Source of the DNA: Raineyaceae bacterium
GTDB lineage: Bacteria > Bacteroidota > Bacteroidia > Cytophagales > Thermonemataceae
Length of the DNA: 28,937 bases
Direction of reading: 5' to 3'
NCBI GenBank assembly: GCA_043771315.1
Contig: JAYVHJ010000474.1
Coordinates: 1 to 28,937, forward strand
Shown here: one piece after another, positions 3,280 through 21,905 of the stretch
Layout of the letters: each line of letters opens with the position of its first letter
Position numbering within the stretch: the stretch's first letter is position 1
Position numbers and translations under genes: made by a program
Notes under the pieces: generated by a model
What the model was told of the DNA's origin: nothing
The model's database searches: none
The model's input: the letters and a program-made list of their open reading frames with translations, nothing else

Positions 3280-3325
3280 AAAATAATATGTTAGCTGTTA
3301 TAATTGGTTGTTGTTTATTGTATTT

Positions 3326-3374
3326 AATTCACAATTCACAATTCACAATTAAAAATTCACAATTAAAAATTATT
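3326..3374. repeat. Heptanucleotide tandem repeat array (AATTCAC)n, 7 units
   Basis: AATTCAC AATTCAC AATTCAC AATTAAA AATTCAC AATTAAA AATTATT. It overlaps the rpsP stop codon. Confidence 0.75.
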
Positions 3375-3912
3375 CTTCTGTTTTTGTAACTTCTTCTGTT
3401 GCAGGTGCATCAGCAATTACTTCTGCCACAGGCTCTGCAACTGGCTCAACGACAGGGGCATTTTTCTTAGCAATAGCAGCGGCACGGTCAGTAGATTTCT
3501 TAGTTTCTGCATCAAGACGAGCTTTAGCATCTTTTACTTTATTATCAGCCAAAGTATCTATTTTTCCAGAGATTTTAGCTTCTTTATTTTGTTTCCAAGC
3601 AGCAAATTTAGCATCAGCAACTTCTTGCGTGATAGCTCCTTTTCCTACACCAATTTGAAGATGTTTTCTGATAAGTACACCTCTATATGAAAGCATTGCT
3701 TTTACTGTGTCAGTAGGTTGTGCACCTTTCATTACCCAGCTAAACGCTTTTTCTTCATCAATATTGATGCTTGCAGGGTTGGTGTTTGGGTTGTAAGTGC
3801 CTATTTTCTCTATGAACCTACCATCACGTGGAGAGCGAGAGTCTGCAATGATAACATCATACATTGCTAATTTTTTACGTCCACGACGTGCTAATCTGAT
3901 TTTTACGGGCAT
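3370..3912 (-). CDS. rpsP: 30S ribosomal protein S16 with an Ala/Glu/Val-rich C-terminal extension
   Basis: N-terminus MPVKIRLARRGRKKLAMYDVIIADSRSPRDGRFIEKIGTYNP is canonical bS16. A ~90-aa low-complexity tail (VVEPVAEPVAEV) is typical of Bacteroidetes. Confidence 0.9.
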   Translation of the reverse strand: MPVKIRLARRGRKKLAMYDVIIADSRSPRDGRFIEKIGTYNPNTNPASINIDEEKAFSWVMKGAQPTDTVKAMLSYRGVLIRKHLQIGVGKGAITQEVADAKFAAWKQNKEAKISGKIDTLADNKVKDAKARLDAETKKSTDRAAAIAKKNAPVVEPVAEPVAEVIADAPATEEVTKTEE

Positions 3913-4130
3913 TGTTTTGCTTGGTTAAACTTTAAAAGTTTTGCGACAGAACTCGTCTGTCTTTTTCTACCTTAAATATTAAGGACTGCAAAGGTAATAC
4001 AATAATTTAGAATAAAAAATAAAAGTTTAAAAAGTTTTCCCTGTGATGCCCTGTTGAGAACTTCTACTCACAATAAACAATAATAGTTATCTTGGAAATG
4101 AAGATAATTCTAGTTTTATTGCGTAACAAA

Positions 4131-4196
4131 TATATAGAAAATACATTGTTTGACGAAGTGCGTTGTGGGTGTCGCTAACGCTAAAACAACCAACAA
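4131..4196. repeat. Left inverted repeat (~65 bp) bounding a 2.2-kb three-gene cassette
   Basis: 4131-4196 is ~90% identical to the reverse complement of 6267-6332. The shared core is GTGCGTTGTGGGTGTCGCTAAYGCTAAAACA. Confidence 0.65.
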
Positions 4197-4220
4197 TGGC
4201 AGAAATTAAAACCATAGAAT

Positions 4221-4835
4221 ATGAAAAAATTAAAAGTTACAATTGATTGGCTTAATTGGTTTCACAAAGAAGCTATTGAAGTGATTACTACAATAGATAA
4301 TAAAGAATTATTCAGCAAGTCGCTAGAAGGTGAAGTATCTGGTAATCATTTGAGTTATAATACGGTTTTTAAATTGGTAGATTCTTTTCTAAGTGCTTTT
4401 GACTTCCTAATCATTGATTACATTAGACTTATCTGGTGTGAAAAACTTAAAAATGATAATTTACAACTCTCTAATAGGGGTGATACCTTTGAAGATTGGA
4501 AAGAAAGTGTGTTGAAAGGAAATTACGAATTTGAAAATTCATTTGGTGGAGATTATGAAGATCCAACAAATATTTATTACAATTACTTATTAGATGCAGA
4601 AGGCAAAGATATGAGTCTTTATAAATACAATCAAACAGATGGAACTCTAATATTTCTTTGGTACAATCCTAAAACTGATACAACAATGTATAGCATAGAC
4701 ATAGAGCTTAGAAAAGCTTTGTTTTCTATTGATAAATACTTTGATGTTCATTTACCTGATGATTTTATAGAACATAATAAAATAATGCTAGCACAAGCAG
4801 AAGATAAAATAATGAGTATGTTTAAAACAATCTAA
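4221..4835 (+). CDS. Hypothetical cytoplasmic protein (204 aa), no family recognised
   Basis: Clean ATG ORF with no signal peptide. It is the first gene inside the inverted-repeat-bounded segment. Confidence 0.5.
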   Translation: MKKLKVTIDWLNWFHKEAIEVITTIDNKELFSKSLEGEVSGNHLSYNTVFKLVDSFLSAFDFLIIDYIRLIWCEKLKNDNLQLSNRGDTFEDWKESVLKGNYEFENSFGGDYEDPTNIYYNYLLDAEGKDMSLYKYNQTDGTLIFLWYNPKTDTTMYSIDIELRKALFSIDKYFDVHLPDDFIEHNKIMLAQAEDKIMSMFKTI

Positions 4836-5050
4836 CTATATATGCGACTTTGTTGGTATGCTTTTTCCTCTGTTGTCGTCTGTTTTAGCATAACGTACAC
4901 CAACAACGGCAGAAACCTTGAAAATCTGTGATATATATAATTTACTTTTAGAATTATGTAACATTTTTCTAGAATTATGTAACACCCTATTGTGGAATTT
5001 GTTGCAATTTTGCATTGTGGAAATACTTTCACAATCTAAAATCTATCATA

Positions 5051-5839
5051 ATGAACATAAAAAATCTACTACTAATAATTTTTGCAACTGCTTCTATTAT
5101 TTTTTCAGGCTGTAAAAAAGACAATAATGCAGTAACGCCTGTAGTACCACCCACAAATGTAATAATCACTCAAACAGTAGTACAACCTGCAATAAACCTA
5201 CGAACTGCAGGTAATTTTGTGGTTTTGGCTGGTTCGCTAATATCAAATATTCCTGCCTCTGCAATCACAGGAAATATTGGGTTAAGCCCGTCAGCGGGTA
5301 GTATGATTACAGGATTTGGAGGCACTGAAATAACTGGAACAGTTTATACAGTAGATGCGACTGGTCCTGCGGGTTCTGTACCTGATGCAGTAGGGCTTAC
5401 TGCTGCAAAAGGTGATTTAACAACAGCCTACAACGAAGCTGCAGGTCGTACTTCAACTGACATTGTACTTCTTGCAGGAAACATTGGGGGACTTACACTC
5501 AGTCCTGGACTTTACAAATCATCAGGATCACTTGAAATTTCTTCTGGAGACCTTACATTTGATGCAAAAGGAAATGCAAATGCAACTTTTATCATTCAAA
5601 TTGCATCTTCTTTGAATACTACTTCAGGTCGTAAAATCTTTTTAGCTGGTGGGGCATTGGCATCAAATATCTTTTGGCAAGTAGGAACTTCTGCTACGCT
5701 TGGAACTACCTCTGTTTTCAAAGGTAACATAATGGCTGACCAATCAATTTCAGTAAATACGGGTGCAGCAGTTGAAGGGCGTTTGCTTGCACGTATTGCA
5801 GCGGTTACTTTAAGTAGTAATACAGTTGTCAGACCATAA
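5051..5839 (+). CDS. DUF3494 / ice-binding-like family lipoprotein
   Basis: Lipoprotein signal MNIKNLLLIIFATASIIFSG|C. The mature part matches the DUF3494 beta-helix family: TAGNFVVLAGS...ITGNIGLSPS..., GLTLSPGLYKSSGSLEISSGDLTFDAKGNANATFIIQI, IFWQVGTSATLGTTSVFKGNIMADQSISVNTGAAVEGRLLAR. The ORF track starts at 5015; the ATG at 5051 is preferred. Confidence 0.7.
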   Translation: MNIKNLLLIIFATASIIFSGCKKDNNAVTPVVPPTNVIITQTVVQPAINLRTAGNFVVLAGSLISNIPASAITGNIGLSPSAGSMITGFGGTEITGTVYTVDATGPAGSVPDAVGLTAAKGDLTTAYNEAAGRTSTDIVLLAGNIGGLTLSPGLYKSSGSLEISSGDLTFDAKGNANATFIIQIASSLNTTSGRKIFLAGGALASNIFWQVGTSATLGTTSVFKGNIMADQSISVNTGAAVEGRLLARIAAVTLSSNTVVRP

Positions 5840-5862
5840 TTGTACAATTATTTTATGAGATA

Positions 5863-5900
5863 AAAGAGGGTGTCCAAAAAGGATACCCTCTTTTGGTGTT
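5863..5900 (+). terminator. Intrinsic terminator after the DUF3494 gene
   Basis: AAAGAGGGTGTCC-AAAAA-GGATACCCTCTTT hairpin followed by TTTTGGTGTTTT. Confidence 0.5.
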
Positions 5901-5943
5901 TTAGCATAGCAATAAATCAATACACAAATGGTGGGAAAAATGA

Positions 5944-6240
5944 CTACAGGATATCTACAACCCTTCCGTACGCAATTTCAGATGGGAAAACCCCCAAACT
6001 AAATTCTGCACCTTGTTTGATTTTATTCTGCAAAAAATCACGTTCAAGCAATTTAATTCCTATCCTACATATTTTCCCAATTTCAATGTATTCGTCTTGA
6101 ATTTGAATTTCTGAAAATGTAGAATGTTCTGAGTCAATTAGCCAGAAAGATGTTCTGATTGGATTAGTTATAGGAAAGTTAAAGTTCTCTTTTGCTAATT
6201 CAAAAAATATAATATCAACTATCAAAAATAGCTCTTTCAT
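5944..6240 (-). CDS. Hypothetical protein (98 aa)
   Basis: ORF inside the inverted-repeat-bounded segment. No recognisable domain. Confidence 0.35.
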   Translation of the reverse strand: MKELFLIVDIIFFELAKENFNFPITNPIRTSFWLIDSEHSTFSEIQIQDEYIEIGKICRIGIKLLERDFLQNKIKQGAEFSLGVFPSEIAYGRVVDIL

Positions 6241-6266
6241 TCTGATTATTTTTTTACAAATCTAAA

Positions 6267-6332
6267 GGTTGGTGTTTTAGCATTAGCGACACCCACAACG
6301 CACTACATCAAACAATGTATAATTTCTAATTC
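6267..6332. repeat. Right inverted repeat (~65 bp) bounding the cassette; overlaps the ABC transporter stop codon
   Basis: Reverse complement of 4131-4196 with 5-6 mismatches and 1 indel. Confidence 0.65.
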
Positions 6333-8212
6333 ATTTCCAGTTGCAGACGCACCAAATTGTTATAAATGCCTTCATTTTGGGCAAAAAGTTCGTCGTGTGT
6401 GCCTTGTTCCATAATATTTCCATTGCTCAAAACATAAATTTTATCCACTTTTCTTATGGTAGCAAGCCTATGCGCAATAATAATGGTAGTGCGGTTTTGC
6501 ATCAAATTATCTAGTGCATCAGCCACTAATTTTTCAGATTCTGCATCAAGAGAGCTAGTAGCCTCATCAAGCACCAAAATACGTGGATTTTTGAGTATAG
6601 CACGAGCAATAGCAATGCGTTGGCGTTGCCCACCAGAGAGTTTTATCCCTCTTTCACCTACCACAGTATCAAATTTCTCTGGAAAACCTTCAATAAAATC
6701 AAGTGCGTTGGCTTGTTTTGCAGCTTCTATTATCTCTGCATCTGTGGCAGAAAGTTTACCATAAGAAATATTTTCTCTGATAGTTCCACCAAACAAAATA
6801 ACCTCCTGCGGTACAATACCAATGTTTTGACGCAAATAAGGCGTGTTTATGTCGTTGATATTTTGGTTGTCTATGCTGATTTGTCCGTTAGCATTTTCTA
6901 ATTTATAGAATTTCATAAGTAATTGTGCAATAGTAGATTTTCCTGCGCCACTATGCCCTACAAGAGCTATTTTTTGCCCTGCCAAAATCTCAAAATTGAT
7001 GCTTTTCAGCACTTGCACGTCTGTACGTGTAGGATAAGAAAATTGCACATTTTTGAAAACTATATTTCCAGCCACAATAGCAGGTTGTTGTGTGATTTTT
7101 TCAGCTGAATTTACTAATAATTTTTCTTCTAAAACAAACTCACTTTCCTCGTCCAAAATCTCCAAAATACGTTCAGATGCGCCCACAGTTCTTTGAAGTT
7201 GTGCATACAAATCACCCATACCAGCCACAGATGCGCCAATAAAAATCATATATAAAATAAATTCTACCAGTTCTCCAGTTTTCATTTCTCCACTTGCAAT
7301 GAGTGTAGCACCATACCAAAGCACAAAAACAATCCCACCAAAAAGTGCAAAAATCAAGAAAGAAACAAACGCACCACGAAAAACAGACGCTTTAAGTGCC
7401 ACTACAACGACTTCATCAAGGTTTTTGCGGTAGCGTTTCACCTCAAAAAGTTCCATAGTAAATGCTTTGACCACGTTGATAGCCTGAAAAGTTTCCTCTA
7501 CAATAGTATTGGCTTGTGCTAATAAATCTTGCGTTTTTTTGGAAAGTTTTCTGATAAATTTCCCAAAGAAAATAGCCGCCACAATCATCAGCGGGAATGT
7601 TGCAAGCATCACAAGGGCAAGTTTTGGGTAACTAATCAAAATCAAAGTAATACCAATTAAAAGTACCGCCATTTGCCTGAAAAGTTCTGCTAAATTGAAG
7701 GAAAGCATACTTTCTAGTTGCGCCACATCAGTATTCATACGGCTTACAAGCTCACCAACACGGTTTTTTTCAAAGAAACTCAAAGGAAGTGTGATAATCT
7801 TGGAATATAATTTACTTCTGATGTCTGCCATTGTCTTTTCTGTGACGATAGCAAACAAATAAACCCTAAAAAATGATGCTAAAGCCTGCAAAACAAGTAT
7901 TCCAAAGAAAATTAGGGCTACTTGGTTGATAGGATTTGTAACATTTAAGTTTTTGCAAAAGTCGCTTATTGCCACTAAAACAGCATTACTTTTGCCGTCT
8001 GCTACATCTGTGAGCGTGCCTGCAAGTTTAGGAAAGGAAAGCGTTGTAAGGGTTGAAAGCACCAAAAATAACATTCCAACAATGAAATAATTTTTGTAAG
8101 GAAGTGCAAAACGGAATAATTTAACTGTTTTTTGGAAATTTTGTTTGTTAAGTTTTATTTTCTTATCTTCTGGATTTTCTTCTGCGCTATTGAATTTGCT
8201 ATTGCGTGCCAT
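6326..8212 (-). CDS. ABC transporter, fused permease/ATP-binding protein (MsbA/type I exporter family)
   Basis: 628 aa. N-terminal 6-TM domain, Walker A GHSGAGKST, ABC signature LSGGQRQRIAIARA, Walker B ILVLDEATSSLD, H-loop IAHRL. Confidence 0.9.
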   Translation of the reverse strand: MARNSKFNSAEENPEDKKIKLNKQNFQKTVKLFRFALPYKNYFIVGMLFLVLSTLTTLSFPKLAGTLTDVADGKSNAVLVAISDFCKNLNVTNPINQVALIFFGILVLQALASFFRVYLFAIVTEKTMADIRSKLYSKIITLPLSFFEKNRVGELVSRMNTDVAQLESMLSFNLAELFRQMAVLLIGITLILISYPKLALVMLATFPLMIVAAIFFGKFIRKLSKKTQDLLAQANTIVEETFQAINVVKAFTMELFEVKRYRKNLDEVVVVALKASVFRGAFVSFLIFALFGGIVFVLWYGATLIASGEMKTGELVEFILYMIFIGASVAGMGDLYAQLQRTVGASERILEILDEESEFVLEEKLLVNSAEKITQQPAIVAGNIVFKNVQFSYPTRTDVQVLKSINFEILAGQKIALVGHSGAGKSTIAQLLMKFYKLENANGQISIDNQNINDINTPYLRQNIGIVPQEVILFGGTIRENISYGKLSATDAEIIEAAKQANALDFIEGFPEKFDTVVGERGIKLSGGQRQRIAIARAILKNPRILVLDEATSSLDAESEKLVADALDNLMQNRTTIIIAHRLATIRKVDKIYVLSNGNIMEQGTHDELFAQNEGIYNNLVRLQLEMN

Positions 8213-8237
8213 TTGTGAGATTGGTTTAATTTTGGTG

Positions 8238-8267
8238 CAAAGATACGGTTTTTATGCTAGTCTGCAA
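8238..8267 (-). promoter_or_regulatory. Bacteroidetes sigma-A type promoter for the ABC exporter gene
   Basis: Minus-strand read: TTG-19 nt-TATCTTTG, matching TTG-N19-TAnnTTTG exactly, ~25 nt upstream of the ATG at 8212. Confidence 0.4.
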
Positions 8268-8308
8268 TTTAAAAAAACGTGATTTTATTTGTATTGCTAG
8301 TTCATAAA

Positions 8309-8340
8309 TGAAAAAGGCACACCATTAGTGTGCCTTTTAA
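8309..8340 (-). terminator. Intrinsic terminator of the T9SS-cargo gene
   Basis: AAAGGCACAC-CATTAG-TGTGCCTTT hairpin with a T-rich tract on the minus strand, 25 nt after the stop. Confidence 0.5.
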
Positions 8341-8361
8341 TATGCATATTATTTATATGAA

Positions 8362-9291
8362 TTATTCTACAATTATTTGGTGTCCTTCTGTAAGGTTTCC
8401 TTCACTAATTTGCACCAGATATAAACCTGCTTTTAGCGTTTTGAGTGGAATAACAAACTCTTTGGCTTTGTTTGTTTGCGCTGACAATACCAATGCACCA
8501 AAACTATTATAAATATTTACCTCACTAAACGTAATACCTTCTTTGGAATCAATCATTGATTTTATTTGTGGAGGCAATATGGGACATTCAACTGTGGTAG
8601 TTTTTTCTGAAACACCTATTTTTATTTGCTCTGAAGCAGGATTTGGCGAGATATTATACAGTTTTGACGAATTGCTACAAAGACTAGGCAGATTTGTAGG
8701 GTCACTAGGATTATTATAAGAATTATTTAGGGTTATAGGTGCTATAAAATCAGGGTGAGCATACTTCACTAATCCACTTGTATAGATTTGATTGGCTATA
8801 TCAAAAAGTCGTGAGATTTGATTAACTTTAAGTATATAGGTATCATATTGGAGCGTTCTTGCTAGTATCACTTCTCCGCTAAACATTTGAAGTACGCTAG
8901 AAATTGCTACATTAGGTTGCAATTCCAAAATAATTTCGTTGATAGGATACCAAGGCAGGTTTCCTAATTTATAAGCGAAACAAACAAATTCTGCATCAGT
9001 AGTTAAACTCCCTTGCAAATTTTGCAAAAAAACAGCAGCATTCTGATTTATATTACTGATAATAAGCATTTTGTTTCCAAAATTTTGTAAGCAACTAATT
9101 TGTAGGGAATTAGAAATATTAGTGATTGTCTGTTGGGTTGATTGCAGGGTATTCTCATCATACAATCTTACTACAATTTGAGTTTCATCTAAAGATAGCT
9201 CTAATTGTCTACCGCCAGAATAATAATAGGTTTGCGCTTGCACAGACATTGAAACAAGCAAAATAAACAATACAAGTAGTGATTTTTTCAT
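8362..9291 (-). CDS. Secreted protein with signal peptide and C-terminal T9SS sorting domain (Por secretion CTD)
   Basis: N-terminus MKKSLLVLFILLVSMSVQA. C-terminal ~80 aa has the type-A CTD signature SPNPASEQIKI...VNIYNSFGALV...LKAGLYLVQI. The middle region ends in VKYAHPDFIAP, reminiscent of a subtilase-propeptide/inhibitor-like fold (weak). Confidence 0.75.
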   Translation of the reverse strand: MKKSLLVLFILLVSMSVQAQTYYYSGGRQLELSLDETQIVVRLYDENTLQSTQQTITNISNSLQISCLQNFGNKMLIISNINQNAAVFLQNLQGSLTTDAEFVCFAYKLGNLPWYPINEIILELQPNVAISSVLQMFSGEVILARTLQYDTYILKVNQISRLFDIANQIYTSGLVKYAHPDFIAPITLNNSYNNPSDPTNLPSLCSNSSKLYNISPNPASEQIKIGVSEKTTTVECPILPPQIKSMIDSKEGITFSEVNIYNSFGALVLSAQTNKAKEFVIPLKTLKAGLYLVQISEGNLTEGHQIIVE

Positions 9292-9592
9292 AGGTTGTTG
9301 TAGGTTATATTGAATAGGGATTTAATTTCACTGAGTAAAATCTTTTTTTTTCATAAAAGCCTTAAACCTGTCTAATTTATATTATGCAAATATATATAAA
9401 AAATTGGTTTATCAAAAAAATCAGAGAGTAATTGACACAAATACAAACATCTTTTGATTGCATCTTATTATTTTTGCCGTCTGCTTTAGCTGATGGAACA
9501 CTGATTTTAGAGATAATATACTTTGTAACTATTTGATTACCAAATAATTAATTATAATTAAAATATTTATTTTTTGTTTTCTTATTTTTATT

Positions 9593-9623
9593 TTGGAAAA
9601 TACAAAGTATTATCGTACCTTTG
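9593..9623 (+). promoter_or_regulatory. Candidate Bacteroidetes-type promoter upstream of the HU gene
   Basis: TTG (9593-9595)-20 nt-TACCTTTG (9616-9623); 5' UTR ~110 nt. Confidence 0.3.
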
Positions 9624-9743
9624 CAAACTCTAAAATAGTGGTTATTAAGAACTTATAAATTAGCTTACAAACTAAGGTTTATACTTATCAACCAAACCAA
9701 AAAATAGAAAAATCTTAGTCGTTTCATTAAACCATCAACGCAA

Positions 9744-10157
9744 GTGACAAAAGCCGAAATTATTGCAGAAGTAACCAACCAAACGGGTGCAGACAAGCAA
9801 GAAGTGCTGAAAATAGTTGAAAAACTATTTGATGTAGTTAAAAAAAATATGATAGAAGGGAAAAATGTTTATGTGAGAGGCTTTGGCAGTTTCATAAATA
9901 AAAAACGTGCTGAAAAAGTAGCTCGTAATCTTTCTAAGAACGTAGCAATGATTATTCCTGAGCATTATGTGCCAATTTTTAAGCCTTCAAAGACTTTTTT
10001 GGATAAAGTAAAGAAAAATGTAAATGATGGTAATGTTCTTAAAACAACTGTAAAAGCTGGTAAAGCAAAAACTACTAAAAAAGTAGTCAAACCTGCGACA
10101 AAAACAGTTGCAAAAGCAACAGATAAAACTGCTGTGAAACCTACAACAAAAAAATAA
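9744..10157 (+). CDS. HU/IHF-family DNA-binding protein with a lysine/alanine/threonine-rich histone H1-like C-terminal tail
   Basis: GTG start. MTKAEIIAEVTNQTGADKQEVLKIVEKLFDVV...RGFGSF...R is a canonical HU fold. The tail is KAGKAKTTKKVVKPATKTVAKATDKTAVKPTTKK. Confidence 0.85.
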   Translation: MTKAEIIAEVTNQTGADKQEVLKIVEKLFDVVKKNMIEGKNVYVRGFGSFINKKRAEKVARNLSKNVAMIIPEHYVPIFKPSKTFLDKVKKNVNDGNVLKTTVKAGKAKTTKKVVKPATKTVAKATDKTAVKPTTKK

Positions 10158-10200
10158 TTGCTTTTGAAGAAATATTTTAATTGATATTTAACCAAATTTT

Positions 10201-11112
10201 ATGCAAAAAACACAGCTAATTTTGATTGTAGTGGCTATAGCAATAATAGGAGGCTTATATAGCTTGCCTAGAGTTGTTGTAAGCAACCCAGCAAGTCAGA
10301 ATAATGCTGCAAAATCTGCACAAAATGAAGGCAAAAGCGACAATAAAACTGATGCAAATGCGCAAGAACATACTCACGCAGATGGCAGCAAACATACAGG
10401 TTCGCACTCGGAAGATGAGAATACAAGCACACATCAAAAAGGGCTTTCTGAAAGCCAGAAAAACCGTTTGAATACGCTTAAAAAGGCTTATCTACAAGAA
10501 AGCGCAGAGAAAAAAAGCATTGCGCTAGACTCTCTTAATGCTTTTTTTAGAACAGTGAACCTCATTGATAGTGTTGGTTTCTATTTGCTTGCTGATGCTC
10601 GTAGTAATAAAAATACTCCTGATAAGCTAAAACTAGCTGCTGATGCTTATTTTGATGCTTTTGGTTTTGCGTTGGACAGTTCTCGTGCCAAATCTTTGGG
10701 ACAAGAAGCAGAAAAGATTTATACAGAAATCCTAACGCAAAATCCTAAAAATCTTGATGCAAAAGCAAAATTAGGTGTTATCTATGTGAGTTCTAATGCA
10801 GTAGCACCAATGAAAGGCATCAATTTGTTGCTTTCTGTGGTAGAAGAAGACCCAAATAATGAGTTTGCACTCTATAATTTAGGTTTCTTTTCTATGATGC
10901 GTGGCGCACATGACAAAGCCATTGTTAGATTTGAAAAACTTCTGGAAACTCACCCACGCAATATCCAAGCGTGGATGCACCTAGCGGAAAGTTACGAAAC
11001 ATTGGGCAAAAATAAAAAAGCTTATGAGGCACTAGAAAAAGTAAAACAACTAGATAACTCACCAGAAGTACAAAAAGAAGTTAATAAAAAACTTCAAGAA
11101 CTGAAGAAGTAA
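10201..11112 (+). CDS. TPR-repeat protein with N-terminal membrane anchor and a His/Ser-rich linker
   Basis: TM segment LILIVVAIAIIGGLY, then a HTHADGSKHTGSHSEDE low-complexity region, then 4-5 TPR-like repeats (AYFDAFGFALDS, AKAKLGVIYVSS, ALYNLGFFSMMRGAHDKAIVRFEKLLETHPRN, AWMHLAESYETLGKNKKAYEALEKV). Confidence 0.75.
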   Translation: MQKTQLILIVVAIAIIGGLYSLPRVVVSNPASQNNAAKSAQNEGKSDNKTDANAQEHTHADGSKHTGSHSEDENTSTHQKGLSESQKNRLNTLKKAYLQESAEKKSIALDSLNAFFRTVNLIDSVGFYLLADARSNKNTPDKLKLAADAYFDAFGFALDSSRAKSLGQEAEKIYTEILTQNPKNLDAKAKLGVIYVSSNAVAPMKGINLLLSVVEEDPNNEFALYNLGFFSMMRGAHDKAIVRFEKLLETHPRNIQAWMHLAESYETLGKNKKAYEALEKVKQLDNSPEVQKEVNKKLQELKK

Positions 11113-11138
11113 TTACGAATTATCAATTACGAATTACG
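11111..11138. repeat. Heptanucleotide tandem repeat (AATTACG variant) x4
   Basis: AATTACG AATTATC AATTACG AATTACG, starting inside the stop codon of the TPR gene. Confidence 0.65.
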
Positions 11139-11254
11139 AAATTTTTGTATGTATTCAGATACAAAATAAAACAAAAAAAATTAGTGCCGTTGCTTGTGTC
11201 TTCACAAGCAACAAAGGAATTTAATCATTTTCAACATTTTAAAAATCACAAATT

Positions 11255-11344
11255 ATGCCTTGCGGAAAAAAAAGAAAACGTCACAAGATTGCTACACACA
11301 AACGCAAAAAACGTCTAAGAAAAAACAGACACAAGAAAAAATAG
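11255..11344 (+). CDS. 29-aa polybasic peptide, probably a bS22-like ribosomal small protein (absent from the ORF track)
   Basis: ATG...TAG: MPCGKKRKRHKIATHKRKKRLRKNRHKKK, 21 of 29 residues K/R/H. Composition and length resemble mycobacterial/Bacteroidetes bS22 (e.g. ...[20 protein letters not shown]...). Preceded by a stable hairpin. Confidence 0.5.
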   Translation: MPCGKKRKRHKIATHKRKKRLRKNRHKKK

Positions 11345-11540
11345 TTCTTGTCTGAACTCAATATACATCATTCCAAGAGGGTAAAATCTTTTGGAATGAT
11401 TGCGTTTTTAAGATAGTAAGTATTTGATTATCATTTTTTTAATTAAATATTTTGTCAAATAAGTAGGTTTTAGTAATTAGTTGATGTTTTGATAGTATTA
11501 AAAATGATATGTAAAACCTTACTATTAACGTTTTGTATTC

Positions 11541-11568
11541 ATTCACAATTCACAATTCACAATTCACA
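11541..11568. repeat. (ATTCACA)4 heptanucleotide tandem repeat 36 nt upstream of the RNase E/G start codon
   Basis: ATTCACA ATTCACA ATTCACA ATTCACA ATTACCT. Confidence 0.75.
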
Positions 11569-11603
11569 ATTACCTACATACAATCAACTAAAAAAATACG
11601 AAC

Positions 11604-13163
11604 TTGAATAGTGAATTAGTTATTAATTCTACGCCAGAAGGGGTGCGTATTGCCCTTTTGAAAGACAAAAAAATTGTAGAATACCATATTGAGGAAACTG
11701 GAAGTAATTTTGGAGTAGGAGATATTTATTTAGGAACTATTCGTAAGATAATGCCTGGGCTAAATGCCGCTTTTATTGATATAGGGTACGAAAAAGATGC
11801 TTTTTTACACTATCTTGATTTGGGCGCAAATGTGCCCTCATTGCTAAAATATACCAAAGACACTATTGCCAAAAGGCAACAAACACACAAACTAGATACT
11901 TTTACGCTTGAGCCACCTATTGAAAAAATAGGTAAAGTAACGCAAGTGCTTAACCGTAATACCCCAATTCTTGTTCAGATAACAAAAGAACCCATTTCTA
12001 CAAAAGGACCTCGTTTGTCTTGCGAAATCTCTATTGCAGGGCGTTATATGGTGCTTGTGCCATTTGCTAGTTCTGTTAATATTTCTAAGAAAATAGCCTC
12101 AAAGGAAGAAAGAAATAGGCTTTTAAGGCTGATTAGTTCTATCAAACCTAAGAATTTTGGCGTGATTGTGCGCACTGCTGCAGAAGGCGTTGAGGTAGCA
12201 GAACTTGATACAGATTTGCGTGATTTGGTGGAAAAATGGGAAAGTGGTTATAATAAATTGCGTGATGCAATGCCTCGTGACAAGATTTTGGGCGAAATAG
12301 GACGTGTAAGTTCTATTTTGCGTGATATGTTGAATGATAATTTTGATAGCATTTTGGTAGATGATAAAGCTATTTTTGAAGAAATAAAGGCTTTTGTAAA
12401 AATCATCTCACCAAAACACGAAAAAATAGTCAAATTTCATAATTCAAAAGTGCCTATTTTTGAACTTCTGAACATAGAAAAACAACTTAAAAGTTTGTTT
12501 GGAAAAACAGTTAGTTTGCAAAAAGGCGGTTATTTGGTCATAGAGCATACAGAAGCATTACACGTAATTGACGTGAATAGTGGCAATAAATCAACAGCGC
12601 AAGAAAGTCAGGAAGAAACAGCACTTGCCGTAAACCTAGAAGCAGCAGCAGAAGTCGCTAGACAGCTTCGTATGCGTGATATGGGTGGTATTGTGGTAGT
12701 GGATTTTATTGATATGAAACGTGCTGAATACAAATTACAAGTATTTGAAAAAATGCGCCAATCAATGGCAGAAGACCGTGCCAAACACACTATTTTGCCT
12801 ATTACAAAGTTTGGACTGATGCAAATCACACGCCAAAGGGTGCGCCCAGAAATGAACATCAAAACCCTAGAAGATTGTCCTACCTGTGCAGGAACAGGCA
12901 AAATAGGTGCTAGTATCTTGATTTCTGATAACATTGATTTAATGTTGGCACACGTTTTGGAAAAACAAAATGAAGCGGGAATTACGCTCACTTTGCACCC
13001 ATTTTTAGTAGCTTATTACACAAAAGGCTTTCCTTCAAGACGTGCAAAATGGTTTTTCAAATACAAAAAATGGATAAAAATTATTGCGGATAACTCCTTG
13101 TCTATCAATGATTTCAAATTCAAAAACAAAGAAGGTATTGAATTAGAGTTAGATAAATTCTAA
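11604..13163 (+). CDS. rng: Ribonuclease E/G family endoribonuclease (RNase G-like)
   Basis: TTG start. 519 aa. S1 domain near the N-terminus (VGDIYLGTIRKIMPGLNAAFIDIG), DNase I-like catalytic region (HVIDVNSG...D...MGGIVVVDFIDM), Zn-link CPTCAGTG. Confidence 0.85.
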   Translation: MNSELVINSTPEGVRIALLKDKKIVEYHIEETGSNFGVGDIYLGTIRKIMPGLNAAFIDIGYEKDAFLHYLDLGANVPSLLKYTKDTIAKRQQTHKLDTFTLEPPIEKIGKVTQVLNRNTPILVQITKEPISTKGPRLSCEISIAGRYMVLVPFASSVNISKKIASKEERNRLLRLISSIKPKNFGVIVRTAAEGVEVAELDTDLRDLVEKWESGYNKLRDAMPRDKILGEIGRVSSILRDMLNDNFDSILVDDKAIFEEIKAFVKIISPKHEKIVKFHNSKVPIFELLNIEKQLKSLFGKTVSLQKGGYLVIEHTEALHVIDVNSGNKSTAQESQEETALAVNLEAAAEVARQLRMRDMGGIVVVDFIDMKRAEYKLQVFEKMRQSMAEDRAKHTILPITKFGLMQITRQRVRPEMNIKTLEDCPTCAGTGKIGASILISDNIDLMLAHVLEKQNEAGITLTLHPFLVAYYTKGFPSRRAKWFFKYKKWIKIIADNSLSINDFKFKNKEGIELELDKF

Positions 13164-13203
13164 AAATCCCTGAAAAAAATTACAAGTATTCCTCAAAATA
13201 CGC

Positions 13204-13241
13204 AAAAGTGTTATTCTGATTATCAGAATAGCACTTTTTTT
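13204..13241. repeat. 38-bp palindromic terminator-like element, copy 1 (A4-GTGTTATTCTGAT-TATCAGAATAGCAC-T7)
   Basis: Nearly identical (1 mismatch) to 15570-15608. Perfect 13-bp stem with an A-tract upstream and a T-tract downstream, so a bidirectional terminator. Confidence 0.65.
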
Positions 13242-13337
13242 ATTAAAGTTAATTATTTTGTTACTTTGCTTGTAAAATGAAAAAAAGTATATATTTTTAC
13301 GCCAAGTTACTAGTTATCCCATTAATCAATTTTTTGA

Positions 13338-15557
13338 ATGCCTTATCCTCATCTGCTTACTGCTACAAGAGAGCCTCTTGATATTTTTTTAAATGTTATT
13401 TCAGGGATTATTCCAACAGATTTATCTGGTTTTGTTTTCATCAATTCTGGTGCTGGTAGCATCAATTCTAATGGTTTGCCTTTTGCTAAAAATATGGCTG
13501 ATGGTACTCCCAACCAAGAATATGGCTCACCTGTCATCAATGGAGATGGCTATATATTCCGTTTTGACCTTACGCAAGAAGGCAAAATACACCTAAAAAC
13601 GGATATTTTTCGTACCCCTTGCTATTATGCTGACGTGGCTACGAGTGCTATCACTAATCCAAAAGATAACCGTTTTTGGCACTTGGGTTTCAAGAATTTA
13701 GGTTTGGCTCGTATTTCTTCTGAGTTGGGTACACGTAATCAATTAAATACGGCTATTACACCTTTTCGTTTAAGCAAAAATAGTAATGAATTGCGCTTAT
13801 TAGCTAATTTTGATGCTGGTCGCCCGTTTGAATTTGATCCCAAAAAACTAACGCTTATCACGCCTATTGGTCAAAATGAGTTTTGGGAAGATGGTATGCC
13901 ACCCTTTATGAAGCAACCAATTGCAATGGTACTTACAACGGCTCACCCTGTTTTTGATGCAGAAACAAAAGAGCTATTTAGTGTAAATTTTACTAAAACC
14001 ACACGTGCATTAATGGAAGCAACCACTATTTTTGATGTTTTGCCTAAGAAAAAAACAAAAAAAATGGAGAAAGAAATATTACATAAGATTGTGCTTTGGG
14101 AAAAAGCAGAAGTAAATAAAACCCTTTACACAAATGTTACCCAGTTTTTTAAGGGCTTACGGAATAAAACGAGAATAAAACAAAGTTTTTTTAAGAAATC
14201 TCGTAGAAAAATTAGTGCTTTATTCACTAAGATAGTTACAAAAAAAATTTCTAATCAAAATAATATACAACTATTACTTTGGGAAGGAGAAACTGTACTA
14301 AAAAAATGGCAAGTTGTTGATAAGCAAGGAAAAAATATTGAAATAGCTCATAATATGCATCAAATAGGTCTTACGAAAGATTATTTATTGTTGGCGGACA
14401 CCAATTTTAAGTTCTCTTTTGATATTATGGTGAATAATCCATTTCCTAAAAATTATAGACTAGGGGCTTTTTTTAGAAAATTAGTAAGTGGTGTGATGAA
14501 TGATTATTCAAGTATTTATATTGTTAATAGAAAAGATTTATTAGACAACAAAACCTCTGTAGTAGCTCAAAAAACCACATTGCCTGTTGAAACAGTACAT
14601 TTTTCTGCTAATTATGAAAATCCTGATGGTATTATTACAGTGCATACAGCACATAACTGTTCTGCTTGCCCCGCTGATTGGTTGCGACCTTATGATAAAT
14701 TGAAAATAGGGCAAAAATTAGTGGATAAACAGCGTTTGGGACTTATTGCAGTAGGTGAGATGGACATAGGAAAAATAGGAAAATGTGTCATAGATGCTAA
14801 AAACGGCAAATTATTAGAAGATAAAACAACATTTTTGCACCTCACAGGAGAAGACAAAGAAGGTAATCTTACAGGCGCACATACGTGGGGTGTTGGGTTA
14901 TATACGTATAGATATATGCTTTCACCTGATGAAAATGTAGCAGAAATTACGCATATTTTTTGGCAAAGTTATGGGCTTTCCAATCAAATGCTAACTAATT
15001 TTATTTATGATTTGTACAAAAATCCTAAAAGAAATAGGGTTTTTCAGGCAGAAGAAGTACTTGCTTTTACTGAAAAAGAAGCACCTTATATCTTAAAATG
15101 TGTGGCTACTGATACAATGACAGTAGATGATTATTTTTTGTTCCCAAAAGACTATTTTATGTGGTCTTTGCAGTTTGTACCACGCAAATACACACAAAAT
15201 GCCCGTAATGAGGCAATTCCTTTGCAAAAAGATGGTTATATTTTTTGTACGGTGGTTACAACAGAAAATATAATTATTAATAATAAAGAAATAAAACAAC
15301 ACAATTCTGAAATATGGCTTTTTGATGCTAATAATCTTGCGCAAGGTGCTATTTGCAAACTTGATCACCCAGCAATGCAATTTGCCTTTACTATTCATAG
15401 CGTTTGGGTGAAAGAGGCAAATGAGGTTTCTACGCCAGATTATATTATTCCTATGAAACCTGATTATGATTTTATGATAGAAAGAATGGGGGGAAAGAAC
15501 ACGAGAAAAAAAACACAGATACTATTTGATGAATATGTTTATCCTCATTTTAAATAA
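13338..15557 (+). CDS. Carotenoid cleavage oxygenase / RPE65-family protein with a ~100-aa Lys-rich insertion
   Basis: 739 aa. CCO landmarks: NGDGYIFRFDL, NTAITPFRL...LRLLANFDAGRPFEFDPKKLTL, TTAHPVFD, MHQIGLTKDYLLLAD, VHFSANYENPDG, FVPRK...KDGYIFCTVV. Residues ~235-335 (KKKTKKMEKEIL...KKWQ) form an extra low-complexity insert. Confidence 0.65.
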   Translation: MPYPHLLTATREPLDIFLNVISGIIPTDLSGFVFINSGAGSINSNGLPFAKNMADGTPNQEYGSPVINGDGYIFRFDLTQEGKIHLKTDIFRTPCYYADVATSAITNPKDNRFWHLGFKNLGLARISSELGTRNQLNTAITPFRLSKNSNELRLLANFDAGRPFEFDPKKLTLITPIGQNEFWEDGMPPFMKQPIAMVLTTAHPVFDAETKELFSVNFTKTTRALMEATTIFDVLPKKKTKKMEKEILHKIVLWEKAEVNKTLYTNVTQFFKGLRNKTRIKQSFFKKSRRKISALFTKIVTKKISNQNNIQLLLWEGETVLKKWQVVDKQGKNIEIAHNMHQIGLTKDYLLLADTNFKFSFDIMVNNPFPKNYRLGAFFRKLVSGVMNDYSSIYIVNRKDLLDNKTSVVAQKTTLPVETVHFSANYENPDGIITVHTAHNCSACPADWLRPYDKLKIGQKLVDKQRLGLIAVGEMDIGKIGKCVIDAKNGKLLEDKTTFLHLTGEDKEGNLTGAHTWGVGLYTYRYMLSPDENVAEITHIFWQSYGLSNQMLTNFIYDLYKNPKRNRVFQAEEVLAFTEKEAPYILKCVATDTMTVDDYFLFPKDYFMWSLQFVPRKYTQNARNEAIPLQKDGYIFCTVVTTENIIINNKEIKQHNSEIWLFDANNLAQGAICKLDHPAMQFAFTIHSVWVKEANEVSTPDYIIPMKPDYDFMIERMGGKNTRKKTQILFDEYVYPHFK

Positions 15558-15569
15558 ATTTCCATAATA

Positions 15570-15608
15570 AAAAAGTGTTATTCTGATTATCAGAATAACA
15601 CTTTTTTT
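15570..15608. repeat. 38-bp palindromic terminator-like element, copy 2 (shared terminator of the convergent CCO and hutG genes)
   Basis: AAAAAGTGTTATTCTGATTATCAGAATAACACTTTTTTT. Confidence 0.65.
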
Positions 15609-15630
15609 ATTAACATCAGTTAAGAGTATT

Positions 15631-16635
15631 TTATGAAACCACTTTGAAAATCAAATTTGCAGCAAGTTTTGCAGTTTGCTCATCTCTATCAAATTGCGGA
15701 TTAAGTTCTGCAATATCAAATGCAATGATTTTGCGAGTATTTGCAAGGTAATCTAAAAGCGCAAAAATCACCTCTGGATAGACACCTTCTCCATTTGTAG
15801 CACTTACAGCAGGTGCAAAGGCTGCCGCAAAAACGTCCATACAAACCGTAATATAAAGTGCATCTTTGTCGGCTACAAAATATTCTAATTTTTCTAATAA
15901 TTCTGATAAATAGTGCATATTTACCCTGTTTGAGAGGATATATTCTGCGCCAATTTCTTTTGCATTATTGAAAACTTTGGTTGTATTACTTTGTTTTTGG
16001 ATACCAATAGCAAGATAATGAAAGGGCATAGCATTTTTTTCACAAAGTTCCGAAATTTGCAAAAAAGGCGTACCAGAATTGCCTTTTCCTATTCTGCTAA
16101 CGCTTCCACTAGTTGCATTGTCTTTGTAACTACGAGTATCCAAATGTGCATCAAAATTGATAATACCCACATTTAGTTGATGTTTTCTTGCGAAATGATG
16201 AATACCCAAATAATGCCCGTAGGCTACCTCGTGTCCGCCACCCAAAACAATGCTTTTGTAGCCTTTGGAAAGAATATAATCAATTTTCTCGCCTAAATCC
16301 ACTTGTGCATCTTCCAAAAAATCACCTAAACACACCACATCTCCAATATCAATAATTTTACTTTTATCAGAAAGATGATAGGGAAGGTTAGAAAGTGCTT
16401 TTCTAATGTGTTTTGGAGCTTCACTTGCACCAATACGCCCCAAGTTACGTTTTACGCCCTCATCACAACAAAAGCCTGTAATAACGTAGCTAACAGCATC
16501 ATTTGCAGACACAGGCGTAAAATCTGGGCTATTGATAGGGAGTGTTTGTATGGCTTGATGCCAACGGAAACCCTCACGACCATCTAGCGTGTCTATGCGT
16601 CCTTGCCAAAGTTTTTTGTTGGGTATTCTATACAT
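15631..16635 (-). CDS. hutG: Formimidoylglutamase (arginase/ureohydrolase superfamily)
   Basis: 334 aa. HutG-type N-terminus (W.GR.D......R.HQ), metal ligands GGGHEVAYGH, INFDAHLD, SVCMDVFAAAFAP. No other hut genes nearby, so the in vivo substrate is uncertain. Confidence 0.75.
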   Translation of the reverse strand: MYRIPNKKLWQGRIDTLDGREGFRWHQAIQTLPINSPDFTPVSANDAVSYVITGFCCDEGVKRNLGRIGASEAPKHIRKALSNLPYHLSDKSKIIDIGDVVCLGDFLEDAQVDLGEKIDYILSKGYKSIVLGGGHEVAYGHYLGIHHFARKHQLNVGIINFDAHLDTRSYKDNATSGSVSRIGKGNSGTPFLQISELCEKNAMPFHYLAIGIQKQSNTTKVFNNAKEIGAEYILSNRVNMHYLSELLEKLEYFVADKDALYITVCMDVFAAAFAPAVSATNGEGVYPEVIFALLDYLANTRKIIAFDIAELNPQFDRDEQTAKLAANLIFKVVS

Positions 16636-16640
16636 TTTTT

Positions 16641-16668
16641 AATTGTGAATTGTAAATTGTGAATGAAT
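16641..16668. repeat. Heptanucleotide repeat (AATTGTG, the reverse complement of CACAATT) x4, immediately 5' of the hutG start on the coding strand
   Basis: AATTGTG AATTGTA AATTGTG AATGAAT. Confidence 0.7.
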
Positions 16669-16684
16669 ACAGTTTTAGCATATT

Positions 16685-17500
16685 TCAATCCCCGCCACCA
16701 CCATCTCCATCTCCGCCACTGCTATCACCTGCGTCACCAATAGCGTCAGCAATACCATCAATGGCATCAAGAATAGTATCCAAAGCATCTGTCAAGTCTT
16801 CTAAATCTTTTTCTAAATGGATTTTTTTTAAAGTATTTGTAATTTCTTCATTTTCAGAGGGTTGTTGCGCCCAAAGCGTCAGTTTTTTTTTAATTTCTTC
16901 TTGTAAACTTATTTTGTGCAAACTAAATTGCCCACCATAGACAAGGCAATAAAGTTTGCAGGCACTAGCAATTTTTAGAATAATAAAATCTGTTAAATCT
17001 GCTTCTTGTTCTCCAGAAACAATTTTTTGGAGTTTTTCTTGATAGTTTAACCTTGTTTGGTCTGATGTAATATGAGTAGATTTGTAGGTAAAAATACCTA
17101 AAAATTTCTTTTTTTCTGTGATAATCATTTTTTTATCTTCTAAACTGCTGATTATCTGTGAAATAAGTTTTATTTTTCTGTCTATAGCCATTCCTAGCCA
17201 GTCAGCTACTGTTTGTGCAGTTTCTTGTTTTTTGCCACTGCGCCAAAACCAATTTACCTTTTTAGGAATGGTACAATTTTCCCAAATAGCATATAATAAA
17301 GCATCTTTTGGAGGATTTTTGATAAGCCCTAAAAGTTCTTTTTTGCCTTTCCAAGAAATGTTTTCTTGCAAAATCATTTCCATAAGCGTACCACCTGCAA
17401 CCGCATACAAAAATGGTGCATAATACTTTACATAGGGTGTTTCTCCTTTTTCTGATGTTGTACCAAGCCAATACAGCTTTTCAAAAATAGTTAAATCCAT
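16685..17500 (-). CDS. GPP34 (GOLPH3-like) family protein with a C-terminal Asp/Gly-rich tail
   Basis: N-terminus LTIFEKLYWLGTTSEKGE...YAPFLYAVAGGTLMEMILQENI matches the GPP34 signature LLLLa.DDe.Gk.....l.yaLAGA.L.EL. The C-terminus is DAIDGIADAIGDAGDSSGGDGDGGGGD. Confidence 0.5.
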   Translation of the reverse strand: MDLTIFEKLYWLGTTSEKGETPYVKYYAPFLYAVAGGTLMEMILQENISWKGKKELLGLIKNPPKDALLYAIWENCTIPKKVNWFWRSGKKQETAQTVADWLGMAIDRKIKLISQIISSLEDKKMIITEKKKFLGIFTYKSTHITSDQTRLNYQEKLQKIVSGEQEADLTDFIILKIASACKLYCLVYGGQFSLHKISLQEEIKKKLTLWAQQPSENEEITNTLKKIHLEKDLEDLTDALDTILDAIDGIADAIGDAGDSSGGDGDGGGGD

Positions 17501-18373: not shown

Positions 18374-18560
18374 TTTTTTGTATTTTTGTGTTTTGATACT
18401 GAAAAATAGTTGTAACTTAAATATAAAAGGTTGTTAATCAACCAATTATATAAATACTATTCGTAATTATTTTTAAACGTAACAAAAAAAACATCAAAAA
18501 AAAAGAAAAAAGTGAATTTTGATAAATTAGATTGTTGTAATTATTACTACGCTGTATTTA

Positions 18561-18595
18561 ATTCACAATTCACAATTTACAATTCACAATTATTA
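18561..18595. repeat. (AATTCAC)n heptanucleotide repeat, 5 units, ending 10 nt before the rsfS start codon
   Basis: AATTCAC AATTCAC AATTTAC AATTCAC AATTATT. Confidence 0.75.
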
Positions 18596-18605
18596 ATAAA
18601 GTCAA

Positions 18606-19503: not shown

Positions 19504-19514
19504 ATATAAAATAG

Positions 19515-19544
19515 TGGTGAGTTGTAAGTTATGAATTGTGAGTT
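19515..19544. repeat. Heptanucleotide repeat (GTGAGTT/GTAAGTT) x4
   Basis: GTGAGTT GTAAGTT ATGAATT GTGAGTT. Same family as 3159-3200. Confidence 0.6.
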
Positions 19545-19754
19545 AATACAAAATACTGATAATCAATTTATTATGACCTTCCACATAAAAACATAAAAAT
19601 CAAGTAAAAGAAGTAATACCTCTGCAATTGCATCTGCAAGCGCACGTGTATTGCTTCTTTTTTGTGTGTTCATTTTGTTTAAGAGTTACAAAAAATACTA
19701 AAAAACATTGTTTGTATTTTCACAAACAACTATTATACAAATACTCCAAAATCT

Positions 19755-21584: not shown

Positions 21585-21817
21585 AATGATAGGGTTGTTG
21601 GATAATTGGGTGATTTTATTAGCTGTTGCTTTAAACACTTCTTTTGTGTCGTATGCCAATCTTTATTACAAAACCGTTCCAAAAATTAAAATAAGTCCAA
21701 AAAAATCATTAAAAACCCACAATACTTCATTTAGAATACAAAAAAGCACTTTTTTTATTTTAGAAAATTTCTTTAAAGAAATTTTCTAATGCTTTATTGC
21801 CAAAATACTGTACGTAA

Positions 21818-21889: not shown

Positions 21890-21905
21890 GTGTTTGTATA
21901 GAAAT

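Follow-up and report, generated by a model that had tools for sequence, protein, structure and literature searches.

A REP/REPIN-like family of intergenic hairpin repeats in Cytophagales and its decayed copies around a three-gene islet in a Raineyaceae genome

We analysed a contig of 28,937 nucleotides from a Raineyaceae bacterium (JAYVHJ010000474.1; this whole stretch of DNA is called the window throughout), in which three genes lying between rpsP and the gene for an ABC exporter are accompanied by four copies of an intergenic hairpin repeat. The repeat is a REP/REPIN-like family (REP, repetitive extragenic palindrome) of Cytophagales, of the already known kind that is associated with REP-associated tyrosine transposases (RAYTs), and it has a candidate cognate RAYT. 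The best explanation overall, and in our judgement a probable one, is that the four copies in the window are decayed members of this lineage-wide family, and that the outermost pair does not represent the two ends of a gene cassette. It is carried by family membership, conservation of the hairpin, association of the hairpin with a RAYT gene on one metagenome contig (locus L045), orthology of the right-hand copy in relatives, and variable synteny next to that copy, all of which were observed directly.

A repeat search of the whole window recovered an inverted repeat with 48-nt arms (4141-4188 and 6273-6320, 94% complementary), which is the longest in the entire 28.9 kb. Its 31-nt core has two exact matches in the window and none in 100 dinucleotide-preserving shuffles, and all four occurrences of the nonamer GCTAAAACA in the window fall within the segment 4131-6332. 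A preceding sequence-only reading of this DNA had described that segment as bounded by inverted repeats of ~65 bp with ~90% identity; the inverted repeat is real, at the length and complementarity given above, while the identity over the 66-nt coordinates 4131-4196 and 6267-6332 is 84% in a gapped alignment (57/68). A profile of the repeat family places four copies in the segment, designated left, int1, int2 and right (Table 1). The left copy has an intact leader (AAATACATTGTTTGACG) and 5' arm (CGTTGTGGGTGT), and its 3' arm has decayed to ACAACCAACAATG. The 3' arm of the right copy is truncated after ACACCAAC, from where the sequence runs on as CTTTAGATTTGTAAAAAAATAA. Of the internal copies, int1 is diverged (37/48 aligned positions agree with the consensus) and is followed by a partial 3'-arm-like motif, GCATACCAACAAAG; int2 is the weakest of the four, a 16-nt remnant in which only the loop and the first part of the 3' arm survive (CTATGCTAAAACACCAA) and which shares a 15-nt exact match with the right copy. 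Both the presence of internal partial copies and the overlap of the right repeat with the stop codon of the ABC exporter (6326-6328) had been noted from the letters alone, and the profile bears them out. When compared with the consensus of the G-type sub-family built from other genomes, the left copy matches at 61/67 positions and the right copy at 49/53, and the two are no closer to each other than to that consensus.

The consensus unit of the family is ~75 nt long and consists of a leader (AAATACATTGTTTGACGTARTK), a 5' arm (CGTTGTTGGTGT), a conserved 13-nt loop (CGCTAACGCTAAA), a 3' arm (ACACCAACAACG) and a tail (GCAGGAAA), the two arms forming a perfect 12-bp palindrome. A scan with a degenerate core, using one genome per species, returned 16 contigs from three metagenome-assembled genomes (MAGs), namely Raineyaceae GFS_9294, Raineyaceae GL46_Up_concoct_182 and the unclassified 'bacterium 341R_metabinner_26_sub', with many of the matches at contig ends. 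The nhmmer profile recovered 72 non-redundant copies in 35 loci, drawn from the three related MAGs, from metagenomes and from cultured Bernardetia, and the open reading frame (ORF) maps place every copy in intergenic DNA. Among the MAGs, JAYVGJ holds 32 copies (on 11 short contigs), JANYGM 11 and JAYUKY 6, all intergenic; the fetched loci were chosen for containing the repeat, so these copy densities are biased upward. A scan of metagenomes found the hairpin alone in 20 further contigs, mostly as solitary copies between ordinary genes, and several sites lie beside housekeeping genes (atpF/atpH, after miaA, after rimM). At one such site, L039 11422-11468, a solitary copy sits between atpF and atpH within the ATP synthase operon. 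The replicons of cultured Bernardetia (Cytophagales) carry the same hairpin, for example between rimM and a phytase-like gene. The phage collection that we searched with the inverted doublet described below gave no match. The family is thus lineage-wide, present in Raineyaceae and in other Cytophagales. The fallback of the sequence-only reading was that the repeats form an intergenic family confined to this genome; the intergenic family stands and its restriction to one genome does not.

Copies are arranged as singles, tandem pairs, inverted pairs and dense clusters, the densest of which holds ~10 copies in 3.3 kb (L006). The inverted doublet, ~210 nt in total, is made of two units around a conserved spacer of ~105 nt and recurs in both orientations at different loci; it is REPIN-like, or like a miniature inverted-repeat transposable element (MITE). 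Pairs separated by less than 150 nt include 10 in tandem, 8 with their 5' ends facing and 0 with their 3' tails facing. The tetranucleotide located 2 nt before the stem follows the pattern NTAR (GTAA in 9 copies, TTAG in 8, GTAG in 8, CTAA in 5, ATAA in 4), and it is not conserved among the metagenome copies. We also observed a second hairpin type at ~4390-4545 of L049 and in L050-L052, in which the leader AATACATTGTTTGGCGTAGTT is shared and the stem is different (GGTGTCAGGT...ACCTGAYACC); in L049 it is followed by tandem copies of its own 3' arm plus CAGGAAAA.

The hairpin itself is maintained across the family. In an alignment of 46 distinct copies, 94.6% of stem cells pair, compared with 28-65% when the 3' partners are slid by one to three columns. 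Stem variants that are compensated on the opposite arm were found as well: a mid-stem change from T-A to G-C at three loci in three genomes (L046, L018 and L006), a change of the outer pair from G-C to T-A in Bernardetia (L057), and a change of the outer pair from G-C to C-G upstream of the RAYT gene in L045. The amount of variation is too low for a covariation statistic, as expected of a recently propagated repeat.

RAYTs are a known type of domesticated transposase. On L045, a metagenome contig of 1.5 kb, an ORF of 171 aa (772-1287) lies between inverted hairpins (688-727 on the minus strand and 1350-1397 on the plus strand) that have the same stem and tail as the family and a loop differing by 1 nt. 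The ORF matches the full profile of NCBIfam NF047646, 'REP-associated tyrosine transposase' (E 5.6e-19), with a score of 68.5 bits that is below the 80-bit equivalog cut-off; it also matches Pfam Y1_Tnp weakly and structures of IS200-family transposases marginally. Its motifs comprise NHIH (the HUH motif), WQ after it, and the tyrosine motif YIHNNP. The protein falls into a 90%-identity cluster of 24 members, one of which is on a 3.3-Mb contig and one of which is named 'REP element-mobilizing transposase RayT' by JGI. Quentin et al. 2018 (PMC6006769) describe subclass 2.6 of TnpA_REP, equivalent to RAYT group 5, as mostly from Bacteroidetes, with the motifs NH[LIV]H, WQ and YIH[QN]NP and a mean length of ~179 aa, and subclass 2.4 as found in Bacteroidetes and also in Cyanobacteria and other phyla, with the motifs NH[IFV]H, WQ and YIxNNP and ~194 aa. 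The L045 protein fits subclass 2.6 in motifs and length; the motifs of subclass 2.4 fit it too, the assignment being by motifs and not by phylogeny. The present hairpin family is not named in the passages of that study consulted here. The matching stem and tail suggest that an enzyme of this kind is the cognate RAYT of the lineage, with the candidate encoded on a contig other than the Raineyaceae contigs fetched.

RAYT-like genes of Bernardetia were considered as the cognate enzyme and rejected, as their products are ~35% identical to the L045 RAYT and the genes are flanked by other hairpins. They are located on Bernardetia plasmids (L058, NZ_CP147018.1 494249-494851, and L059), encode the motif YIHNNP and come with separate hairpin sets of their own; an RHS toxin gene stands two genes ahead of the one in L059. 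Cytophagales therefore seem to carry several REP/RAYT systems. On L045 itself, the sequence past the downstream hairpin (1392-1490) repeats an internal part of the RAYT (aa 57-89) with 97% identity, which points to a truncated second copy or else to an artefact of assembly.

If the family behaves like the REP/RAYT systems that have been characterised, the hairpin would form on single-stranded DNA, where a single-copy HUH/Y1 RAYT acting in trans would recognise, nick and re-join it, and this action would spread copies into intergenic DNA; mobility of the repeats in the present lineage would likewise be RAYT-driven. The copies in the window, with their broken 3' arms, are probably immobile fossils. 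The inverted pair would be a by-product of two independent copies that happen to lie in opposite orientation, and the right copy would belong to the 3' end of the ABC exporter gene and be older than the present gene order.

Several observations weigh against this explanation. GTAG at the 5' foot of the hairpin is the RAYT cleavage site in Escherichia coli, and in the present family this canonical tag is only partly present, in 8 of ~55 copies and with two extra bases before the stem. The link between repeat and RAYT comes from one 1.5-kb metagenome contig, L045, whose taxonomy is unassigned, and tblastn with the L045 RAYT found no homolog in the window or in any of the fetched Raineyaceae loci. 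The relatives compared yielded no clean pair of filled and empty sites for the repeat. When folded as single sequences on both strands, the four window copies are no more stable than shuffles (z from -1.1 to +0.55), which is uninformative because those copies are decayed. Four copies were seen in ~35 kb of the window's own genome, and all four fall into the four successive intergenic regions that surround the three accessory genes, a clustering with P ~0.002 under length-weighted random placement. Plain random scatter of REPs does not account for it.

The history of the right copy can be followed in relatives of the ABC exporter. Homologs of the exporter with 95-97% identity have differing downstream neighbours, and an orthologous copy of the repeat lies directly after the exporter stop codon in L046, L048 and L049-L052 (the exporter there being 97% identical). 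The next gene past the repeat is ORF3 in the window, an enoyl-CoA hydratase gene in L046, a GAPDH gene in L048 and an ORF of 139 aa in L049-L052, and each time the homology to the window stops in or just after the 3' arm of the repeat. Altogether, the 3' end of the exporter has five different neighbours among close relatives. In L047 (86% nucleotide identity) no repeat follows the stop codon, but the downstream flank differs as well. Since the right copy is present in relatives that do not have the three genes, it is part of the 3' end of the exporter gene and older than the arrangement seen now; since the copy in L046 still has a perfect stem, the copy in the window must have been truncated later.

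These junctions could also mean that breakage or recombination associated with REPs assembled the islet, with mobile REPs serving as breakpoints or landing pads that brought together ORF1, the ice-binding gene and ORF3. The four downstream contexts that begin in or right after the orthologous REP are in line with this, as is the clustering of all four copies around the islet. Between L046 and the window there is a relative inversion with one breakpoint at the REP of the exporter end; the other inversion endpoint (21660-21905 in the window) has no REP. The right copy is cut within its 3' arm, the window (6246-6273, minus strand) reading ACACCAAC and then, past the cut, CTTTAGATTTGT.AAAAAATAA, and the same cut junction plus 22 nt is present at two loci of another genome, Raineyaceae GFS_9294 (L009 5665-5809 and L019 6445-6589). 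Against it, a single junction was sampled across relatives, direct evidence for recombination between copies was not obtained, and REPs may just accumulate under weak selection; the facts fit accumulation in weakly constrained accessory DNA as well as breakage, joining or landing sites. We regard assembly by breakage as unlikely, and a causal part of the repeats in rearranging gene order is putative. A stronger form of the proposal, in which the hairpins of these cold-adapted Cytophagales are preferred sites of breakage and joining, possibly RAYT-dependent, that capture accessory genes (orphan immunity genes and an ice-binding gene among them), reshuffle gene order and thereby take an integron-like role in adaptive islets, is hinted at by the recurrent cut junction (ACACCAAC followed by CTTTAGATTTGT...), the copy at every junction of the islet and the four contexts at one REP, and we consider it decidedly unlikely.

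Further observations concern these loci. In L046, the block from the ABC exporter to arginase (window ~6268-15747) is inverted relative to the block of enoyl-CoA hydratase and DUF4890 genes (21907-23336); as the contig stops short of the far end of that inverted block, its extent to ~21906 is inferred. L046 lacks the 309-aa protein with a type IX secretion system (T9SS) tail (8362-9291) and has an extra gene with a SpoIIE domain. In L009 and L019, the cut junction is followed by ~120 nt of identical multi-copy sequence, at which both contigs end, and this sequence may mark the terminus of an element with the hairpin as its target.

The sequence-only reading had taken the 2.2-kb segment for a three-gene cassette or cargo element, that is, a non-autonomous composite (MITE-like, or a REPIN with cargo) that moved or was inserted as a unit between rpsP and the ABC exporter. 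The 48-nt, 94% inverted repeat does enclose exactly three accessory-looking genes, the base composition is heterogeneous along the segment, and no relative examined has ORF1, the ice-binding gene or ORF3 next to the ABC exporter. The right repeat is, however, at the identical position in relatives without the three genes. The pair also has the wrong polarity: in the doublets of the family and in the flanks of the RAYT gene the leaders point to the inside and the GCAG tails to the outside, the window pair is the reverse, and its left/right polarity was found in 0 of 18 close pairs of the family. No target-site duplication was found, as the flanks, ACAAATATA before the left end and AATTCATTTC after the right end, share no direct repeat, and both terminal hairpins have defective 3' arms. 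The segment is single-copy; none of the other loci with repeats contains ORF1, the ice-binding gene or ORF3, and where homologs of ORF1 and ORF3 occur elsewhere, they are not accompanied by such repeats. Many isolated copies elsewhere, which the earlier reading had itself named as an argument against a cassette, are present in relatives. Its remark that the segment contains no transposase or integrase holds, and extends to the whole window, in which domain scans of the Pfam type found neither. The composite element is therefore largely refuted, and we rate it as extremely improbable.

A different way in which hairpins and genes could be linked is that the repeats are the recombination sites of an integron-like or rAID-like system, in which a gene plus a hairpin forms a cassette and the recombinase is encoded elsewhere. 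A copy in each of the intergenic spacers that border the three accessory genes (P ~0.002, as above) is what this would lead one to expect, small genes without Pfam matches in the related MAGs are often flanked by copies (for example four same-strand ORFs in L007), and ORF1 and ORF3 resemble orphan immunity genes. Nevertheless, orientation is mixed within clusters, tandem copies occur with no gene between them, and copies are found within housekeeping operons as well. The stem (GTTGTTGGTGT/ACACCAACAAC) has no attC-type core of the form RYYYAAC...GTTRRRY, neither the window nor the surroundings of the clusters examined encode an integrase or a tyrosine recombinase, and the enzyme that is actually flanked by the hairpin is a Y1/HUH RAYT. 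An integron-like system is accordingly very unlikely.

The positions of some copies relative to genes might rather reflect a role that is mainly at the level of RNA or regulation, as stabilisers of 3' ends, as terminators, or as a 5' untranslated region (UTR) element common to ORF1 and ORF3; the inverted arrangement would then come from two convergent genes that have one and the same element before them. Both outer copies stop 33 nt short of an ATG (4221 on the plus strand and 6240 on the minus strand), the right copy lies in the 3' UTR of the ABC exporter in the transcribed orientation, a placement kept in relatives, and the copies on metagenome contigs occupy tandem or convergent intergenic regions, never divergent ones. 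However, the 33-nt stretches before the two ATGs are unrelated and copies across the family lie at variable positions and distances from the next ORF, for which reasons a shared 5'-UTR element is rejected; homologs of ORF1 and ORF3 elsewhere also have no such element. Single copies are mixed in orientation to flanking transcription (~4 sense, 5 antisense), and a T-run follows the hairpin on neither strand. No Rfam family matches: the whole window has no match at gathering thresholds, and 3900-6400 has only chance-level ones (E >=1.3). We consider a mainly regulatory role quite improbable. A CRISPR-like repeat was also considered, given a hairpin of 34-35 nt of the form GTTG...CAAC, and was rejected, since the 'spacers' show conservation and the majority of copies stand alone. 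Decayed members of a lineage-wide REP family remain our preferred explanation of the four copies.

The three genes enclosed by the outer copies make up a small accessory islet, located where close relatives have undergone repeated rearrangement. Their heterogeneous composition, pointed out in the sequence-only reading, is confirmed (GC 0.41-0.45 for the ice-binding gene and ~0.29-0.31 for the small ORFs). ORF1 is matched by 10 protein clusters out of 5.8 billion. The gene for one homolog (P0009) is part of an array that also includes SUKH_5/SMI1_KNR4/SUKH-3 genes and that follows a 2113-aa protein, and the AlphaFold2 model of ORF1 (predicted local distance difference test, pLDDT, 81) has no informative structural match (TM-score ~0.2). 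A locus with an ORF1 variant (P0002, L055) was discarded as a probably chimeric assembly, as it matches the window over 815 nt only and breaks inside coding regions. A homolog of ORF3 (P0015) starts 10 nt after a protein of >2732 aa with DUF6443 and RHS repeats. A gene directly after an Rhs-type toxin is in the classical immunity position. The AlphaFold2 model of ORF3 (pLDDT 92.8) resembles a beta-barrel like domain 2/3 of EF-Tu (Foldseek TM-score ~0.72). Together with the place of P0015 behind an Rhs toxin, this fold raises the possibility that ORF3 confers immunity by mimicry of an EF-Tu domain. Its structural matches include EF-Tu in CdiA/CdiI/EF-Tu complexes (7vmc, 5i4q). Going by the gene neighbourhood of their homologs only, ORF1 and ORF3 are probably orphan immunity genes of polymorphic toxins; they are called orphan since no toxin gene is present in the window.

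The ice-binding protein covers positions 1-207 of 208 of the PF11999 Ice_binding profile and has a lipoprotein-type N-terminus (...FSGC), and its gene would fit the apparent origin of this genome from a glacier-fed stream (cf. PMC9021309). The terminator-like hairpin behind it is bidirectional and stands between convergent genes. In a scan of promoters and terminators only this terminator stood out, promoter-like sites being no commoner than in shuffles. A scan of the window for tRNA and tmRNA genes found none.

Table 1. Repeat copies, genes and terminator in and next to the 4131-6332 segment of the window.
Feature	Position	Strand	Evidence
rpsP, ribosomal protein S16 (left-hand context)	3370..3912	-	Pfam Ribosomal_S16, E 7.9e-23
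Left REP-type copy	4134..4210	+	nhmmer profile 66.9 bits, E 7e-20
ORF1, 204 aa	4221..4835	+	no Pfam match
int1, internal diverged REP-type copy	4860..4927	-	nhmmer 37.6 bits, E ~1e-10
Ice-binding (DUF3494) lipoprotein, 262 aa from ATG	5051..5839	+	Pfam PF11999, E 1.3e-63
Intrinsic-terminator-like hairpin of ice-binding gene	5861..5895	+	15-pair stem, then T run
int2, REP-type remnant	5892..5907	-	nhmmer E 0.03; 16 nt
ORF3, 98 aa	5944..6240	-	no Pfam match; 15 matching protein clusters
Right REP-type copy	6265..6327	-	nhmmer 59.1 bits, E 2e-17
ABC exporter (context)	6326..8212	-	Pfam ABC_membrane + ABC_tran

Other parts of the window contain features that are separate from the REP family. A 7-nt tandem unit, AATTCAC or its complement TTGTGAA, recurs in six or more intergenic regions, in many cases immediately before the start of a gene (3305-3380, 11533-11580, 16636-16671, 18539-18600, 19510-19553 and 26800-26838), and is a second, unrelated class of intergenic repeat in this genome. 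The 3' end of the gene for Asp/Asn-tRNA synthetase contains a direct repeat of 96 nt (297-392 and 819-914, 93%, 522 nt apart), each unit of which carries a small ORF of 70-100 aa; a further diverged unit is found at 10388-10778 of L001, the source scaffold beyond the window. A 37-nt palindromic, terminator-like sequence, AAAAGTGTTATTCTGATTATCAGAATAGCACTTTTTT, occurs on both sides of the gene for an RPE65-like carotenoid oxygenase (13204-13240 and 15569-15605, 95% identity), and these repeats are probably duplicated bidirectional terminators. Among the protein-coding genes, an ORF of 829 aa (24231-26720, minus strand) resembles the major vault protein (Pfam shoulder domain E 3e-27, Vault_3 repeat E 1.5e-08), and one of 271 aa (16685-17500, minus strand) matches GPP34, the Golgi phosphoprotein 3 family (E 2.9e-12).

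The reassignment of the repeats removes a false lead, in that the three genes are not a new cargo-carrying mobile element. It also documents a REP/REPIN-like family in Cytophagales, a lineage in which REPs have received much less study than in Proteobacteria. MAG assemblies break at the repeats, as the many copies at contig ends show, and the family is a possible marker for the tracking of lineages and for the persistence of REPIN-RAYT systems outside Proteobacteria. The breaks of synteny at an orthologous REP beside an islet of ice-binding and immunity genes provide a concrete case in which to ask if REPs contribute to the plasticity of genomes in bacteria of cold environments, and if the repeats do drive the capture of accessory genes, REP/RAYT systems would gain an integron-like role in small adaptive islets.

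Among known systems, orphan immunity genes (those next to Rhs/DUF6443 proteins and in SUKH arrays) are comparable to ORF3 and ORF1 in that homologs of the latter occupy immunity positions; the families of ORF1 and ORF3 are not in Pfam and no toxin accompanies them here. Integron attC sites, including the Vibrio VCRs, are similarly hairpin repeats of ~60-130 nt between small genes of mostly unknown function, and were likewise first recognisable as a repeat family. The present repeats differ from them in having neither R''/R' core sites nor the architecture of extrahelical bases, in their mixed orientation and gene-less tandems, and in their enzyme, a Y1 HUH transposase where no integrase was found. 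MITEs are matched by the ~210-nt doublet, which has terminal inverted repeats, no coding capacity, and occurrences at several loci in both orientations; the 2.2-kb segment, in contrast, carries three genes, has no target-site duplication, is single-copy and has the wrong repeat polarity.

The closest correspondence is with the REP/REPIN-RAYT systems of E. coli and Pseudomonas (features for comparison taken from PMC3733652, PMC3116915 and PMC6006769). The present family differs from these in its host, which belongs to Cytophagales (Bacteroidota) and not Proteobacteria, in its long stem (12 bp, perfect) and unusually conserved 13-nt loop, in a conserved leader of ~22 nt, and in a 5' tag that is NTAR, not strict GTAG, with two unpaired bases before the stem; its candidate RAYT was seen on L045 and not in the window or the fetched Raineyaceae loci. 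REPs occur as singletons, head-to-head dimers and clusters, and downstream of genes (Di Nocera et al. 2013, PMC3733652). The present repeats are alike in being short extragenic palindromes with many copies per genome, in occurring as singlets, inverted doublets with a conserved spacer, tandem arrays and clusters, in having copies within operons and downstream of genes, and in the single HUH/Y1 transposase gene that lies between inverted hairpins.

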